Positions 2,036 through 28,304 of a stretch of DNA of 41,292 nucleotides are shown here, piece after piece. Position 1 is the first letter of the stretch. The number at the start of each line of letters is the position of its first letter. The notes beneath the pieces are model-generated. The model was not told the DNA's origin, ran no database searches, and worked only from the letters and a program-made list of their open reading frames with translations. Where the stretch lies: positions 1-41,292 of the forward strand of contig CAYHZG010000001.1 in NCBI GenBank assembly GCA_964361105.1, read 5' to 3'. The position numbers were made by a program, and so were the translations under genes. This DNA is from an uncultured Candidatus Saccharibacteria bacterium. Lineage in GTDB: Bacteria; Patescibacteriota; Minisyncoccia; 2-02-FULL-40-12.

Positions 2036-3262
2036 ATGAATAAGCTTGAATTATTCCGTTTTTTCAGAGACACATTCGTACCGCCATCCTTAAGACCGCG
2101 TTTTAACTTTTGGTGCCGCTATGTTTTGTATAATCGTTGGTACAGGTTCTACTTTCTAGGATCATTCAATCTTTTAAAATATGTTTCGCGCCCGTTGGGA
2201 AAACGCAAGAAGCGGATCTTGGCCTTTGAAAATTTCTATAATAATTCGCCGGCCTTGGGAAGTTTTCTGGAATTTCAGATGAGGGCGCTTTGCTTAGCCG
2301 AATTGCACGATATTGATACGATAGACATCGCCCTAATTTACGATCTAAAAACACCTCTCTGGAATCCCAAAATGTCGAAATGGCTTAGTCCCTCAAACTT
2401 TCAACTGCTTCTTTACGAAATTCTACCCTTGTTAAACCTGAACTCGAAATTGGGCTCGGTATTTGTATTTAACTGTCGGGACGATTTTGAATCATTTCTA
2501 ACCCAGCATTCGGGAGAATATATTCTCTGCCCTTCCCTATTTCATTATATTAATAAAAGCGGCGCCGCTTCGGGAAATTATGGATTTGTGCGAAATTTTT
2601 ATCTAAAAAAGCGGTATCTGCCTCAATTTGTCTTCAAGCCCAACATTGCTCTTTGGGCCAAGGCCTTTATCAAAAAATATGCCGGAGATAAATATCCTGT
2701 TGCCGTCAACTTGCGGATGAATCCGTTTTTTGGCGAAAACCGCAACTCTGATATTCCTTCCTGGCGCCATCTATTTGAATATTGTCTCAATAAGCACCCG
2801 GAGATTGTTTTTCTGCTTTTGGCTCAACAACAAGAAGCACCAGACGACTTGAAACATATGTCTAATATTATCTTTGTAAAAAACCATAAAACCACTATGG
2901 AGCAGGATATGTGCCTTATCAAACACTCTCTTTTTTTTATGGGCGTCGCTTCCGGGCCGACATCTTTTACTAATCTTACTAATGATATACCATACCGTGT
3001 GTTCCGAGTTCAAATGTTTGATAGAAGCTACACTTATAACTGGCATAAACCGGGAAGCCAGTGGCCCTGGGCGGAAAAAACCCTGCAAAAGCTGGTCTGG
3101 GAAAAAGAATCTCCCGATTCACTAATAAAAGAATTTGAACATTTGTTCCGGCTGGTTGACAAAGAGTCCTGGCGAAAGAAAATGGAAGTAGATCAATCAA
3201 AAATCAAGATCCTGGAGTGGCCGTATATTTATGAAGACAACCAAACCCAATCAAAAAATTAG
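2036..3262 (+). CDS. hypothetical protein, distant GT9/GT-B-like glycosyltransferase
   Basis: 408-aa ORF. The C-terminal block HKTTMEQDMCLIKHSLFFMGVASGPTSF resembles the GT9 block (L..L..LI....LFIGNDSGPMHLA). The rest of the protein is not recognised. Confidence 0.4.
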   Translation: MNKLELFRFFRDTFVPPSLRPRFNFWCRYVLYNRWYRFYFLGSFNLLKYVSRPLGKRKKRILAFENFYNNSPALGSFLEFQMRALCLAELHDIDTIDIALIYDLKTPLWNPKMSKWLSPSNFQLLLYEILPLLNLNSKLGSVFVFNCRDDFESFLTQHSGEYILCPSLFHYINKSGAASGNYGFVRNFYLKKRYLPQFVFKPNIALWAKAFIKKYAGDKYPVAVNLRMNPFFGENRNSDIPSWRHLFEYCLNKHPEIVFLLLAQQQEAPDDLKHMSNIIFVKNHKTTMEQDMCLIKHSLFFMGVASGPTSFTNLTNDIPYRVFRVQMFDRSYTYNWHKPGSQWPWAEKTLQKLVWEKESPDSLIKEFEHLFRLVDKESWRKKMEVDQSKIKILEWPYIYEDNQTQSKN

Positions 3263-4322
3263 GCCCGATCAGGAATTTCCCCATTCAGAAGCCGTTTCTT
3301 ACGCTGAAGAATTCGGGCGGCATTTTACGCGGGATAACCTATTCGGCTATGTGGAAAAAATCAAAAAGATCCGGGTTCTTGTCATTGGCGAAGCAATCCT
3401 GGACGAATATCATTTTGGACACGCCATTGGTAAATCCGCCAAAGAGCCGACCGTGGCCCTGAAATTTATGCAAAAAGAGGTTTACCCCGGCGGCTCTTTA
3501 GCCATCGCCAATCACTTGTCTAATTTTTGTGACGAGGTCGGTCTTTTAGCCATGGCGGGAGAAAAAGAATCTCAAATCAATCTTATTAAAAAGTCATTAA
3601 ATAAAAACATAAAACTTTTCTTGTTCCGTAAAAAAAATTCTCCGACGATAACCAAAAAAAGATTTATAGAAATAAGCCCCATCCAAAAACTGCTGGAGTT
3701 TTACATAATCAACGACTCTGAACTTAGCAAAGCTCAAAGCTTGGAATTAAAAAGAATGCTTGATCTGACAGTACCTAAGTACAACATGGTTATCTGTGCC
3801 GATTTCGGCCACGGCATGATTGACTTAGCGGCCAGAAACACCATCGCGGCCAAGGCGAGGTTTCTAGCCGTAACTGCCCAAGCAAACGCCGGAAATATGG
3901 GCTATCACACCATCTCATTATATCCCAAAGCTGACTATCTGTGCGCCGACGAACGGGAAATAAGACTTGAGACAAGAGAAAGGAACAAAGGAATTCCAGA
4001 AATCGTAAAGGAACTTCAAAATAGGTTTTCGTATAAAAATTTGATTATTACGGCGGGTGAGGCAGGGTGTTTTCTGGTACAAAGGAATAAAATTATCCGG
4101 ATCCCGGCGCTGGTTGATAAAACCATTGATAGGGTGGGAGCCGGAGATGCCTTCCTTTCAATTACCGCTCCTTTGATATTTAGCAAAGCTCCGGCAGAAG
4201 TGGTTGGCTTTATCGGCAACGCCGTCGGCGCCATTGCCGCGAACATCATCGGAAACGAAAGGCCGGTCACCAAAGAAATGCTTTATGATTTTTTGAATAA
4301 AACCATAGGATGGACAAAATAG
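3231..4322 (+). CDS. hldA: PfkB-family sugar kinase, RfaE/HldE domain I-like (heptose-7-phosphate kinase)
   Basis: VLVIGEAILDEY..PGGSLAIANHL N-terminal block and C-terminal VDRVGAGDAFLS anchor motif. The start is uncertain: ATG 3231 overlaps the upstream ORF by 32 nt, and GTG 3351 is possible. Confidence 0.7.
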   Translation: MKTTKPNQKIRPDQEFPHSEAVSYAEEFGRHFTRDNLFGYVEKIKKIRVLVIGEAILDEYHFGHAIGKSAKEPTVALKFMQKEVYPGGSLAIANHLSNFCDEVGLLAMAGEKESQINLIKKSLNKNIKLFLFRKKNSPTITKKRFIEISPIQKLLEFYIINDSELSKAQSLELKRMLDLTVPKYNMVICADFGHGMIDLAARNTIAAKARFLAVTAQANAGNMGYHTISLYPKADYLCADEREIRLETRERNKGIPEIVKELQNRFSYKNLIITAGEAGCFLVQRNKIIRIPALVDKTIDRVGAGDAFLSITAPLIFSKAPAEVVGFIGNAVGAIAANIIGNERPVTKEMLYDFLNKTIGWTK

Positions 4323-23501: not shown

Positions 23502-24422
23502 ATGAAAAAAATCGTTGTTCTTGGCGGCACCGGGTTTCATGGAAGCCATGTTGTCCGGTTGGCTAAAGAAAAAGGGTATAATGTTCATTCAATCTCGCGG
23601 CGCGAAGGAACCGACATTCGCGACTACTCTCAATTCTCCGCTAAACTAAAAGAAATCCAGCCAGATGCCATTATTGACTGCGCCGGCCACGAAGGCAGTG
23701 TTCATTATGTCAATCAGCATGCCGCTGAAGTGGCTTACGATACTTTCCAGATGGCTCTTAACCTTTACCGGGCTGTGGCTGAAGTTTGCCCAAAGGCAGT
23801 GGTCATAAACGCATTAGGTAATTGCTCTTACCCTGGAGATGCGACCGTGGCCAAAGAATCAGAGTGGCTTTCGGGCCCGGTTCATGAGTCGGTTTTGGCT
23901 TCGGGAATGGAAAAAAGAGTTAAATATGTTTTGGCTGAATCTTTTTACAAACAGCACGGCATTAAATCAGTAAATTGGATTATGTCCAACTGCTACGGTC
24001 CCGGCGCCGGCACCGACCCCAATAAATTGCATGCCATGAACGGCATCATTATCCGGCTTCTGACCGCTCAAAAAAACGGCGATAAAAAATTTGAAATCTG
24101 GGGCACCGGCAGACCAATTCGGGAATGGGTCTATGTTGAAGACGCGGCAAAGATTCTGGTTGATTCCGTAGAAATGCCGGAGCAAATTTATCCGGTCAAT
24201 TTCGCCCAGAAAAAAGGCTACTCAATCAAAGAAATAGCCGAAATGGCCTCCCGCGAACTTAATTACCCCGCTCAATTCGTTTTTAATACTTCAAAGCCAG
24301 ACGGCGCGCCGATAAAAATATTAGATGATGCCCAGTTCCGGGCTAAATACCCGGATTTTAAATTCACGTCGATTGAACAAGGAATTAAAAAAACAATAGA
24401 ATACTATTTATCCCGCACATAA
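23502..24422 (+). CDS. extended-SDR epimerase/reductase, GDP-L-fucose synthase (Fcl)-like
   Basis: GGTGFHGS and NCYGPGAGTDPNKLHAMNGIIIRL..IWGTGRPIREWVYVEDAA. The last three codons and the TAA lie inside the left inverted-repeat arm. Confidence 0.75.
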   Translation: MKKIVVLGGTGFHGSHVVRLAKEKGYNVHSISRREGTDIRDYSQFSAKLKEIQPDAIIDCAGHEGSVHYVNQHAAEVAYDTFQMALNLYRAVAEVCPKAVVINALGNCSYPGDATVAKESEWLSGPVHESVLASGMEKRVKYVLAESFYKQHGIKSVNWIMSNCYGPGAGTDPNKLHAMNGIIIRLLTAQKNGDKKFEIWGTGRPIREWVYVEDAAKILVDSVEMPEQIYPVNFAQKKGYSIKEIAEMASRELNYPAQFVFNTSKPDGAPIKILDDAQFRAKYPDFKFTSIEQGIKKTIEYYLSRT

Positions 24423-24429
24423 ATTGGAC
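24411..24429. repeat. left arm of a perfect 19-bp inverted repeat (TCCCGCACATAAATTGGAC)
   Basis: Exact reverse complement of 24684-24702, read directly from the sequence. Confidence 0.95.
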
Positions 24430-24684
24430 ATGTATTATGTTTATTTAATAAAAAGTGTTAAAAATAGAAAGTTATATCTTGGTTGTACAAATGATCTAGA
24501 AAATCGTTTACTAAAACATAATGCCGGTAAAATTTATTCAACCAAAAGAGATACACCTTTCGAACTCGTCTACTGTGAAATATATAAATCAAAAGATGAT
24601 GCCTTTGGCCGCGAACAGAAGCTTAAGTATTATGGTCAAGGTTTCCGTCGACTAAAAGAACGTCTTAAGAACAGCTTGAAATAG
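24430..24684 (+). CDS. GIY-YIG nuclease-family protein (YhbQ/UPF0213-type, 84 aa)
   Basis: YYVYLIKS..KLYLGCTNDLENRLLKHN..YSTKRDTPFELVYCE..REQKLK matches the GIY-YIG core. ATG 24430 is preferred over the TTG 24424 inside the repeat arm. Confidence 0.85.
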   Translation: MYYVYLIKSVKNRKLYLGCTNDLENRLLKHNAGKIYSTKRDTPFELVYCEIYKSKDDAFGREQKLKYYGQGFRRLKERLKNSLK

Positions 24685-24702
24685 TCCAATTTATGTGCGG
24701 GA
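24684..24702. repeat. right arm of a perfect 19-bp inverted repeat (GTCCAATTTATGTGCGGGA)
   Basis: Exact reverse complement of 24411-24429. It overlaps the last base of the GIY-YIG stop codon. Confidence 0.95.
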
Positions 24703-24715
24703 CAAGCAAAACAAT

Positions 24716-25666
24716 ATGAAACAAAAGGTTTTAATCACCGGCGGGGCCGGCTATGTCGGAACAAGCTTAATCCCCCAACTGCTTAAAAAAAGTTATGAGG
24801 TTACTGTCTTTGACCGTCTGCTGTGGGACAGTGATGTCTTGATCCCATTTTTTGAATCAAAGAATTTCCATTTCATTAAAGGTGATGTTCGAAATAAGGC
24901 TGCTTTGGCAAAAGCAGTAAAGGGGCAGGACGCAATCGTTCATTTGGCCGCGATTGTCGGCTTTCCGGCCTGCGACATGAATCCGAAATTGGCTGACGAA
25001 ACAAATATTGGGGGAGCTAAAAATTTAGCTGCTGTTACTAGTAAAAACCAGCATATAATTTTCGCATCATCACTATCAAACTATGGCCGAGTCATTGATG
25101 AAATCTGCACCGAAGAAACTCCGCTCGGACCAATCACCCGTTACAGCCGTAATAAAACAAAAGCCGAATTGATTTTAATGGATAAGACGACTTGTACCGC
25201 TTTGCGGCCGGGCACGGCTTTCGGCGCTTCGCCTCGCTTACGATTAGATCTACTCCCCCACCAACTCACAATAAGCGCCCTTAAAGATAAAAAAATGATG
25301 CTATACGAAGCCAATGCCATTCGCCCTTTTATTCACGTTCGGGATTTTGGCCGGGCGATTATTCATACTGTTGAACACGGGGGAAAAATGAAAAATGAAG
25401 TTTATAATCTCGGCGCTGATTCTCTAAATTACACCAAAAAACAAATCGCCGAAATTATAGCCAAAGAAACTAAGGCAAAAATAAAAGAGAGTGATGGCTG
25501 GGAAGACCCGGACAAACGTACTTATAATGTATCCTTTAAAAAATTAGCTGCCACCGGCTTCAAGCCGACGATTGATATGAAAGAAGGCATCCAAGAAATA
25601 ATCCGCATCCTGCCAATTACTGACCCTAAACATAAGTACTCCAACGCAGTTAAGATAACCAAATAG
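24716..25666 (+). CDS. NAD(P)-dependent sugar epimerase/dehydratase (SDR)
   Basis: GGAGYVGTS and YSRNKTKAE (YxxxK). ATG 24716 chosen; the ORF-track GTG 24695 lies inside the repeat arm. Confidence 0.8.
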   Translation: MKQKVLITGGAGYVGTSLIPQLLKKSYEVTVFDRLLWDSDVLIPFFESKNFHFIKGDVRNKAALAKAVKGQDAIVHLAAIVGFPACDMNPKLADETNIGGAKNLAAVTSKNQHIIFASSLSNYGRVIDEICTEETPLGPITRYSRNKTKAELILMDKTTCTALRPGTAFGASPRLRLDLLPHQLTISALKDKKMMLYEANAIRPFIHVRDFGRAIIHTVEHGGKMKNEVYNLGADSLNYTKKQIAEIIAKETKAKIKESDGWEDPDKRTYNVSFKKLAATGFKPTIDMKEGIQEIIRILPITDPKHKYSNAVKITK

Positions 25667-26387: not shown

Positions 26388-28247
26388 TTATAGCTTGATC
26401 TTAAATTTTTCGGCCCAGATTTGAAAAGCAAAAATCGGCATAAATTTTTTTATATTAACACTGGTAAATTCTGGGATTGAATCAATATAATTTTTCCTGA
26501 TTGAATTTAGATTAAAAAGATGGGAAGTAGGCGAATAGTAATGGTCGGATAAAACTTCTTTAACCATCTTGCCGAATTTTGAATGCATCCATTTTACAAT
26601 CGGCGCCCGCCAGCCGGATTTACGCTTATTAATAATATAATCGGGGAGATGATTTTTATAAGCTTGCCTAATGAGCGATTTTGACTGGCCTTCGGCTAAT
26701 TTCTTATCAGACGGGATACTATTGGCGTATCGGACCACTTCCTTGGCCAACAAAGGAAAACGGCCTTCCATCCCAAAGTTCATTGTGATTTTATCCGTTC
26801 TTAAAAACTCTTCATCGGCCAGCCAAAAAAGCCGGTCTAATTCTGCAATTGAATTTTCAATATCTTCTAAAGGTTGGGAAATAATCGGATTCTTTATTGA
26901 GGCCAAGTAATTTTTTAAATCGTGAAGGTCTGATTTTAACGGGAATTTTAATAATTTATCGTCTAAAACAAAATTAACTTTATTCAAATAAGTCCAGCGG
27001 TCTAAGGATTGATCCAATTTTAGAGAATGCCCGAATTTAATCCTTTTTTTTCTTAAAAAATTAATCTCATGCCAAAGATTCATCAAAAACGAGGGGTATT
27101 TTCTATAACGGTTTGAAATCTTTCTGGACTCAAAATACTTTGGGTACCCGAAAAATAATTCATCACCGCCGTTGCCGCTCAAGACCACGACAATGTCTTT
27201 AGCCGCAAATTTTGCCAGAAGCCAGTAGGCGGCAATCGAAGGGTTATACCGCGGTTCTTCAATCGTCTCAAAAACCTTTTCGGTAGCGGTTATAAAATCG
27301 TTTTCGTTAACTAAAAGTTCGTGGTGCTCAATTTTATAATCTTGGGTGAGTCGTTTGGCAAAATCGGCATCCTCATTAAAACTTTCATTATTAATATCGA
27401 ATCTGGTAGTATAAGTTCTGACAATATCTACACCGTTATTTACCAATTCATGCAAAATTACCGTTGAATCAAGTCCCCCGCTTAAGTAAAGACCAAATGG
27501 CCTTAAACCCATGGTATGGGCTAAAACCGATTTACCAATTTTCTCCCTAAGATAGTCAGGATTAAATTCAGTATTTTCGTCAAACCTTTCTTCACCGCCG
27601 AACCACTTTTCATCCAAAGTCTTGTTTTGTAAATCAAAAATTAAAATTTGGCCGGGACAAACTTTATTAACGTTCTGAATCAATGTCTTTGGACCAGGCA
27701 CGTAACCCAGAATAAAAAAAATATTCAAAGATTCAATATTAAGTTTCCTGTCGATGCCGTGAATCAAAATTCCTCTTAATTCGGAAGAAAAAATAAGCTT
27801 TCCGCCGTTATAATGATAATAAAACGGTTTCATGCCCATCCGGTCGCGGGCTAAATAAAGCTTCTTTGCTTTTTTATTCAGGAAAGCAAAGGCGAACATG
27901 CCGTCTAATTTTTTAACGAAATCAATCCCCTCTTCTATTAAACCTTGTAAAAGAACCTCGGTATCGCCTTGAGTATGAAATTTATAACCCTTGGCTTCAA
28001 GTTCTGATTTTAATTTTTTGTAATTATAAATCTCGCCGTTATAAATGAGAACAAAGTTTTTATCAGGTGAAAGAAACGGCTGACGGCCTTCGGCAGGCGT
28101 ATTGGTAATAGCTAAAAGATTATGGCCTAAGCTGATTTCGTCATCAACATAAAAATCTTGGCCATCAGGCCCACGGCGTCTGGTACTCTGGATCATTTTT
28201 TCAATCAGACCTTGATCTTTAAAGTTAAATCCATTTATCCCGCACAT
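26388..28247 (-). CDS. asparagine synthase (glutamine-hydrolysing)-family amidotransferase
   Basis: N-terminal Met-Cys (MCGINGF) Ntn nucleophile, GDTEVLL, and PP-loop SGGLDST. Confidence 0.9.
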   Translation of the reverse strand: MCGINGFNFKDQGLIEKMIQSTRRRGPDGQDFYVDDEISLGHNLLAITNTPAEGRQPFLSPDKNFVLIYNGEIYNYKKLKSELEAKGYKFHTQGDTEVLLQGLIEEGIDFVKKLDGMFAFAFLNKKAKKLYLARDRMGMKPFYYHYNGGKLIFSSELRGILIHGIDRKLNIESLNIFFILGYVPGPKTLIQNVNKVCPGQILIFDLQNKTLDEKWFGGEERFDENTEFNPDYLREKIGKSVLAHTMGLRPFGLYLSGGLDSTVILHELVNNGVDIVRTYTTRFDINNESFNEDADFAKRLTQDYKIEHHELLVNENDFITATEKVFETIEEPRYNPSIAAYWLLAKFAAKDIVVVLSGNGGDELFFGYPKYFESRKISNRYRKYPSFLMNLWHEINFLRKKRIKFGHSLKLDQSLDRWTYLNKVNFVLDDKLLKFPLKSDLHDLKNYLASIKNPIISQPLEDIENSIAELDRLFWLADEEFLRTDKITMNFGMEGRFPLLAKEVVRYANSIPSDKKLAEGQSKSLIRQAYKNHLPDYIINKRKSGWRAPIVKWMHSKFGKMVKEVLSDHYYSPTSHLFNLNSIRKNYIDSIPEFTSVNIKKFMPIFAFQIWAEKFKIKL

Positions 28248-28304
28248 ACCAAATAAGGATAATGGATTATTGTCTAAATCGCAAAAAATGATATATTTGA
28301 AGCC

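Follow-up and report, generated by a model that had tools for sequence, protein, structure and literature searches.

The described system that most resembles the element reported here is that of the Ssn proteins, single-domain GIY-YIG nucleases of 94 amino acids (cd10448) that cleave single-stranded DNA (ssDNA) only, on the upstream side of their cognate hairpin repeat (Chenal et al., Nat Commun 2025, PMC11893778). In Neisseria this repeat is the NTS (CGTCATTCCCGCGMAVGCGGGAATCYRG), of which the SRM is the degenerate generalization (PMC11893778). Ssn homologs are flanked on both sides in 42% of cases, Ssn cleavage persists when the halves of the hairpin are placed on separate oligonucleotides, and Chenal et al. 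remark both on the insertion sequence (IS)-like layout NTS-ssnA-NTS and on an analogy with REP/RAYT systems (PMC11893778). The role of hairpin-nuclease pairs outside Neisseria and their mobility were left open in that work, which makes no mention of RNase P, tRNA, or Patescibacteria (PMC11893778). Here we analyze a GIY-YIG gene located between a GDP-L-fucose synthase-like (Fcl-like) gene and an SDR gene in a 41,292-nucleotide stretch of contig CAYHZG010000001.1, which comes from an uncultured "Candidatus Saccharibacteria" bacterium (GCA_964361105.1); the whole of this stretch is referred to below as the window.

A GIY-YIG gene inserted at the Fcl/SDR junction

Positions 24408 to 24705 of the window probably represent a selfish insertion of about 298 bp, in which a single-domain GIY-YIG nuclease gene forms the loop of the hairpin cognate to it. 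The inverted repeat is perfect over 19 bp (TCCCGCACATAAATTGGAC at 24411-24429, with its exact reverse complement lying at 24684-24702) and lengthens to 22 nt if one mismatch is allowed (24408-24429 and 24684-24705); it encloses a single open reading frame (ORF) of 84 codons and nothing else. The ORF begins with an ATG at 24430 that directly adjoins the left arm and ends with a TAG at 24682-24684, the last base of which is the first base of the right arm; another 13 nt separate the end of the right arm from the ATG of the SDR gene at 24716. The preliminary description of this locus, made from the sequence alone, had given the coordinates of the repeat, the ORF, the stop and start codons, and the neighboring genes, and all of them proved correct when the sequence was reread. 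The features of the region are as follows.

24408..24429, + strand: left arm TTATCCCGCACATAAATTGGAC, perfect from 24411, with an outer part that is the family motif TT-N-A-T/C-CCC-N-C-A/C-C, also present in the arms of homologous loci
24430..24684, + strand: single-domain GIY-YIG nuclease ORF of 84 amino acids, forming the hairpin loop (PF01541 match, invariant residues, low G+C content)
24684..24705, + strand: right arm GTCCAATTTATGTGCGGGACAA, perfect up to 24702
24411..24422, + strand: last three codons (S-R-T) and TAA of the upstream Fcl-like gene, within the left arm (TCC CGC ACA TAA), replacing the native ..YYKKIL C terminus
24693..24719, + strand: 8-codon mini-ORF with its ATG in the right arm (ATG TGC GGG ACA AGC AAA ACA ATA TGA), the TGA overlapping the SDR ATG
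24703..24715, + strand: probable remnant of the original Fcl-like 3' end, CAAGCAAAACAAT (the empty-site locus L088 has CAAAAAATATT)
23502..24422, + strand: host gene for a GDP-L-fucose-synthase-like NAD-dependent epimerase of 306 amino acids
24716..25666, + strand: host gene for an SDR epimerase/dehydratase

The window belongs to a Patescibacteria metagenome-assembled genome from Hainich groundwater, and seven independently assembled contigs from Hainich samples carry the same structure, which is therefore no assembly artifact. The G+C content of the ORF is 31%, compared with 43 to 46% for its two flanking genes.

Orthologous clusters show this one site in occupied, empty, and decayed states. 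The preliminary description had suggested that clusters with an empty site be sought, and four orthologous loci are of this kind: L088 (87% amino acid identity), L090 (85%), and L216 and L217 (82%, on Nomurabacteria-type contigs). In these loci the stop codon of the Fcl-like gene overlaps the start codon of the SDR gene (ATGA), with no intervening sequence, and in an alignment of L088 with the window the insert falls between GAATACTAT and CAAGCAAAACAAT-ATG. A further locus (L089, 92% identity) retains a 17-nt remnant of the left arm, TTATCCCGCACATAAAT, which is followed at once by the SDR ATG and still supplies the stop codon. The native C terminus of the Fcl-like protein in close orthologs reads ..EYYKKIL or QKIL, and in the alignment ..EYYLSRT occurs only in the window and in P0032, the 92%-identical ortholog. 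The unit entered a sugar-biosynthesis operon exactly where the Fcl-like gene meets the SDR gene, and the Fcl-like gene now ends with a stop codon provided by the left arm. The mini-ORF at 24693-24719, judged by its position, may preserve the translational coupling of the SDR gene, with the same ATGA overlap as at the empty sites.

Comparison with the empty sites revealed no target-site duplication at the window site. A 9-nt direct repeat near the arms (AAAACAATA) was considered as a candidate and rejected because, on comparison with the empty sites, its right-hand copy is probably what remains of the original end of the gene; in addition, the EYYL upstream is native coding sequence.

Even with as many as 3 mismatches allowed, the window contains no further copy of the 19-mer (0 expected from 100 shuffles), nor is there a second copy of the ORF; the identical protein is known only from this locus, and its closest homolog (L215) is 62% identical. 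Scans with Rfam and for tRNAs gave no match in the window. A search for other SRM-like or family-type hairpins there was likewise negative, with one motif match, at 28235. Read on the opposite strand, the match (28235-28248, TTTATCCCGCACAT) is ATGTGCGGGATAAA, which encodes the MCGIN start of a minus-strand AsnB-like gene, and the 10 nt that it shares with the right arm (ATGTGCGGGA) are probably a coincidence.

The arm-ORF-arm layout across the protein family

The window protein matches the Pfam GIY-YIG family PF01541 (E = 4e-15) over residues 1 to 66 and has no extra domain, and Y5, Y16, G18, R26, H30, and E62 are invariant across 29 relatives. Matches among solved structures comprise UPF0213 proteins (1zg2 at 1.9e-11; 1ywl), SLX1 (7cq2), and I-TevI, the best being UPF0213 and SLX1; no NCBIfam family scored above its cutoff. 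A homolog scan using one genome per species yielded 80 loci with homologs 45 to 60% identical, 77 of which could be evaluated. Their hosts belong to the Patescibacteria, Omnitrophota, Balneolaceae, Bacteroidia, Planctomycetota, WOR-3, Bdellovibrionales, and other groups.

With an inverted-repeat score of at least 24 as the measure of bracketing, the ORF was bracketed in 63 of the 77 loci (82%), and most arms abut the start and stop codons. The corresponding frequency was 0.5 to 0.8% in controls made of shuffled flanks or random 255-nt spans and 3.5% in cross-locus pairs. The arms have in common, approximately, the outer motif given above for the left arm, and G is nearly absent from the 5' arm. 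At 12 inner positions, arms matched their own partners at a mean of 8.5 of 12, compared with 3.85 of 12 for the arms of other loci, and the inner sequences were distinct in 59 of 62 cases. Protein clades in a neighbor-joining tree coincide with arm subfamilies. The arm-ORF-arm layout, the conserved outer motif, the covarying inner arms, and the correspondence of arm type and clade are general to the protein family. Two loci, L063 and L076, each contain two family ORFs 1.3 to 3 kb apart (second tblastn matches at 4304-4510 in L063 and at 4440-4685 in L076). No relatives were found in plasmids at 1e-5 or in IMG/VR viral contigs, and the phage matches were weak and to generic GIY-YIG proteins only.

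Relatives in RNase P RNA genes, tRNA genes, and coding junctions

In 10 loci the right arm is followed immediately by AGGAAAGTCCGG, the 5' strand of P4 of RNase P RNA, and Rfam model RF00010 confirms 8 of these 10 loci. Helix P1 can be traced in 9 of the 10, where the 10 to 20 nt upstream of the left arm pair with sequence just past the ACAGAAnCCGGCTTA motif, 300 to 520 nt downstream. In at least nine copies (L010, L013, L014, L016, L017, L042, L044, L064, and L075), to judge by these pairings, the ORF with its two arms stands where helix P3 belongs in the RNase P RNA gene; it has the same orientation as the RNA gene, and P1 spans the insert in each.

~2965-3275 in most of the nine loci, 500-790 in L014, co-oriented with the RNA gene: ORF plus arms at P3 of RNase P RNA

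Locus L020 has the same RNase P flanks, but the motif of the P4 3' strand was not found there, and in two further loci the element directly precedes the 3' strand of P4. The hosts of the RNase P copies include Balneolaceae, Flavobacteriales, WOR-3, Saccharibacteria, Moranbacteria, and Peribacteria. Since these relatives are co-oriented with the RNA and sit exactly at P3, the stem must be tolerated there as an RNA helix. In the literature searched, no report of a GIY-YIG ORF inside RNase P RNA was found; for the diverged RNase P RNAs of the Candidate Phyla Radiation (CPR), helix extensions have been reported, and no ORFs (PMC8172020).

A monophyletic subfamily of seven loci with GCCCCTCAC-type arms (L024, L026, L048, L055, L062, L067, and L071) abuts tRNA genes. 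The right arm enters nucleotides 1 to 5 of the tRNA in all seven (Ala-TGC in five loci, Val in one, and Ile in one), and a 10- to 11-nt direct repeat of tRNA nucleotides 1 to 11 is found on the far side of the element. At L071 the complete hairpin is duplicated together with the tRNA 5' segment, with one copy on each side of the ORF.

Elsewhere the element lies in tight coding junctions; both neighbors are co-oriented with it at 35 of 56 of them, and at 10 of the junctions the upstream stop codon lies in or at the left arm. At the locus of the closest homolog (L215, 2400-2705), the downstream gene, recG, takes its ATG from the right arm TTATGGGTGGGAT, mirroring the window, where the left arm provides a stop codon; the palindrome CATAA/TTATG has a stop codon at one side and a start codon at the other.

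Solo hairpins

Scanning metagenomes with the pattern CCCGCACATAA-N0-24-TTATGTGCGGG detected solo-type hairpins at 120 or more loci with unrelated flanks, where an estimated <1 match would be expected by chance. The matches listed include 113 unique hairpins with loops mostly of 1 to 4 nt; among these matches, a family gene was present within the retrieved flanks at only 5 loci, and the 113 hairpins had no flanking direct repeats that were consistent or above the null. Solo copies of the same hairpin are widely dispersed in metagenomes. The part that they have in common with the window arms is exactly the outer 11 bp, to which ORF-bearing copies add a unique inner 7 to 11 bp. Several of the hairpins are associated with RNase P RNA:

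L185, 5301-5323: solo hairpin at the P3 position of RNase P RNA
L095, 329-351: solo hairpin on the opposite strand, adjoining the motif of the P4 5' strand
L141, 14083-14105, and L013, ~3300-3325 (the latter a CCCAGCACATA variant): extra hairpins elsewhere in RNase P RNA

Relationship to Ssn and other systems

The SsnA protein of Neisseria gonorrhoeae and the window protein are 31% identical over 71 of the 94 SsnA residues, with an E value of 2e-11 in a pairwise BLASTP comparison and of 0.05 in a database-scale tblastn search. For comparison, the thresholds used by Chenal et al. to call Ssn homologs were a tblastn E value of <1e-10 over >75% of the query and, in a stricter version, at least 60% identity. 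Aligned with SsnA by hhalign, the family profile gave a probability of 97.9%. The arms also point to Ssn: their core, CCCGCAC, fits the YYVSBRH half-stem of the SRM, and TTATCCCGC resembles TCATTCCCGC of the Neisseria NTS. The profile scored 51 to 59 bits against Ssn-type proteins and 47 to 53 bits against UPF0213 proteins (YazA and BH0048), and UPF0213/YazA proteins are 34 to 35% identical to the window protein.

Ssn and the window family are alike in that a single-domain GIY-YIG protein of about 85 to 95 amino acids, without a DNA-binding domain, is encoded by a gene that has its cognate inverted-repeat motif, with a core of the CCCGC type, on both sides; in both, solo hairpins are dispersed, for the window family across metagenomes, and protein and hairpin appear to covary. 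They differ in that Ssn genes have complete compact hairpins, often paired, on each side, whereas the window gene lies inside one hairpin, with half of it on each side. The window arms also lack the Ssn-type 5' CGTCA box, and the protein appears to belong to a distinct clade, about as close to UPF0213. The N. gonorrhoeae ssnA locus was recovered with its canonical NTS flanks, and homologs from Azospirillum and Spirosoma (32 to 35% identity) are flanked by canonical compact hairpin pairs. On sequence comparison, the window family appears to be sister to Ssn, from which it differs in its hairpin and in the nesting of its gene, and it is not a proven member of Ssn. The form in which the gene sits inside the hairpin is absent from the literature searched, in which no relevant report connecting GIY-YIG proteins with hairpins or REPs was found under those terms; a hairpin combined with a nuclease has been known since 2025.

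Three observations on Ssn-type sequences were made in passing. The Ssn-type gene on Azospirillum lipoferum plasmid AZO_p3 (L093, 277-789) lies between sufB and sufC with paired hairpins on both sides, another insertion within an operon. Near-canonical Neisseria-type NTS/SRM hairpins (e.g., TGTCATTCCCGCGAAGGCGGGAATCCAG) occur away from the studied gene in metagenome-assembled genomes of Moranbacteria and Phycisphaerae (L022, 1369-1447; L075, ~5957; and L074, 2862-2889); in L074, several different hairpin repeats follow one another upstream of the gene. Lastly, the 2.17-Mb sequences NZ_CP119140.1 and NZ_CP119142.1, from which the ssnA locus was taken, are labeled as N. gonorrhoeae plasmids and are evidently chromosomes.

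REP/RAYT systems (IS200/IS605-like) likewise have a gene flanked by inverted copies of a hairpin that is dispersed in the genome and a presumed hairpin-specific, single-strand mechanism, but they use a Y1 HUH transposase in place of a GIY-YIG protein, and REPs flank the gene as whole hairpins and do not enclose it. The UPF0213/YhbQ/YazA proteins and SLX1 provide the closest solved structures; however, yazA of Bacillus subtilis is a fixed gene, overlapping both trmNF and rsmI, and has no bracketing repeat of the family type. GIY-YIG homing endonucleases (I-TevI and SegA to SegG) are also selfish genes located between or within host genes, including structured-RNA genes, yet they have a DNA-binding domain of their own and no enclosing inverted repeat, whereas the window protein consists of the catalytic domain only, and no intron is present. 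Intervening sequences of rRNA are excised by RNase III at a stem that the ends of the insertion form in a helix of a stable RNA, and they may contain an ORF, which the stem closes off. The window element may act alike at the RNA level, although the hosts here are RNase P RNA, tRNA leaders, and mRNAs rather than rRNA.

Proposed mode of spread and expression

By analogy with Ssn and the NTS, the arms would pair when the DNA is single-stranded, either at a replication fork or as it enters the cell, and the nuclease would recognize the stem and the C-rich 5' strand and nick nearby; repair of the break or strand transfer could then spread or maintain the hairpin together with the gene. Promoter-like sites were no more common in the element than in shuffled sequences, and a terminator of its own was likewise indicated no more than by chance. 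With no convincing promoter present, its position suggests that expression of the gene probably depends on read-through of the host operon. The 19-bp stem is present in both the minimum-free-energy and the centroid RNA fold predicted for the element (z = -2.86). In a read-through transcript this helix would close off the ORF, and the insertion would thereby be structurally neutral, which would account for relatives being tolerated in RNase P RNA, at P3, and beside the 5' ends of tRNA genes. On the same folding prediction, an RNA role for the arms is plausible; the stem might be cut by RNase III or might mask the start codon. We also put forward, more tentatively, the possibility that the family is a distinct clade of hairpin-guided GIY-YIG nucleases whose gene rides in its own hairpin, in which a structurally neutral stem replaces the P3 helix of RNase P RNA or the 5'-leader helix of tRNAs and the CATAA/TTATG palindrome supplies a stop codon upstream and a start codon downstream.

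Several results weigh against a selfish insertion of this Ssn-like kind or limit how far the analogy extends. The protein is about equally close to UPF0213/YazA and to Ssn, so that an Ssn-like specificity for ssDNA is an extrapolation, and a neighbor-joining tree of an 84-amino-acid protein is weak evidence for clades. The SRM pattern HGTCWYN(0-2)YYVSBRHN(0-5)WNVSBRGN(0-2)RNCYNB had four matches in the 78 loci including the window, none of them at the arms of an element itself. The window arms have ACTATTTAT in place of HGTCWY, the 5' GTC box being absent, and the arm core CCCGCAC, at the YYVSBRH half-stem, is the only part that fits the pattern. A single copy in the window and its sequence cluster and a nearest homolog at 62% identity give no sign of recent transposition of the window element. 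Wobble mismatches have no strand bias across the arms (37 versus 32), which leaves DNA-level pairing indistinguishable from RNA-level pairing; both may apply.

Alternative explanations

A first alternative is homing in two steps. If solo hairpins came first, the nuclease gene and a short inner repeat might have been copied into their loops by break-induced gene conversion, with the arms serving as homology in the manner of homing endonucleases. Solo hairpins correspond to exactly the outer 11 bp, and the unique inner 7 to 11 bp repeat is confined to ORF-bearing copies; P3 of RNase P RNA hosts both solo and ORF-bearing hairpins, and the P3 copies span several phyla and at least four protein clades. 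We nonetheless consider such two-step homing unlikely. The empty sites at the window junction lack any hairpin, so that at this site arms and ORF are either both present or both absent; arms of 11 to 20 bp offer very short homology for recombination; and, because split half-sites are still cleavable by Ssn, an insertion would not protect the site. It is also improbable that the stem is purely an RNA-level device, an RNase III site or translation-masking structure around a resident gene with no role in DNA. Such a device would suit a stem that dominates the predicted RNA fold and adjoins the ATG, as well as the co-orientation of nested copies with the host RNase P RNA or tRNA gene. RNase III, however, needs no conserved outer motif that tracks the protein clade, solo hairpins are scattered at sites distant from every copy of the gene, the substrate of the homologous Ssn proteins is ssDNA rather than RNA, and the G-U bias expected on the sense strand is missing.

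The preliminary description had weighed a mobile element against an RNA role, and the part of the mobile-element reading that is supported is the inserted unit, given the empty sites and the recurrence of the same layout at unrelated sites in many phyla. The part without support is a classical terminal inverted repeat (TIR) transposon moving by cut and paste, with the GIY-YIG protein as a double-stranded-DNA transposase acting on its repeats. The TIR-ORF-TIR layout and the 10- to 11-bp direct repeats that flank the tRNA-associated subfamily are what such a transposon would leave. Even so, this explanation is very improbable, as target-site duplications are lacking at the window site, at the 113 solo hairpins (above the null), and at the RNase P sites, the 84-amino-acid protein has no DNA-binding domain, and identical second copies were not found in the window or its sequence cluster. 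We know of no IS family, among those in ISfinder, with a GIY-YIG transposase. A chance local hairpin around an ordinary gene would be compatible with the single occurrence in the window and with nothing more; zero matches are expected, and the layout is present in 82% of homologous loci against <1% in controls, which refutes it for all practical purposes.

Other statements of the preliminary description have fared variously. The search for further copies of the termini that it proposed succeeds in part, with no other 19-mer in the window but termini of the same type around homologous ORFs at the 63 bracketed loci, and its expectation that the arms would form a 19-bp stem agrees with both predicted folds. 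The label "YhbQ-type" is approximate for a family about equidistant from UPF0213/YazA and Ssn. Its view that either reading would be new has been overtaken, since a small GIY-YIG protein with flanking cognate hairpins in an IS-like layout, Ssn, was published in 2025 (PMC11893778).

Implications for hairpin-associated GIY-YIG nucleases

The selfish insertion favored here makes the window locus a clean occupied site, with several empty sites and a decayed one, for a relative of the Ssn system. Its compact gene-in-loop architecture has repeatedly invaded RNase P RNA helices and the 5' edge of tRNAs across phyla, and it may account for some RNase P RNAs of CPR genomes that have been described as "diverged" or hard to detect (PMC8172020). 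The many natural pairs of protein and hairpin also offer material for the development of tools acting on ssDNA. What emerges is a testable model of a promoterless selfish gene that lives harmlessly in essential RNAs and tight operons. If the more tentative reading given above, of a stem that replaces RNA helices, is true, these would be helix-mimicking mobile elements, a class not recognized before, expressed from the stable-RNA and operon transcripts of their hosts.

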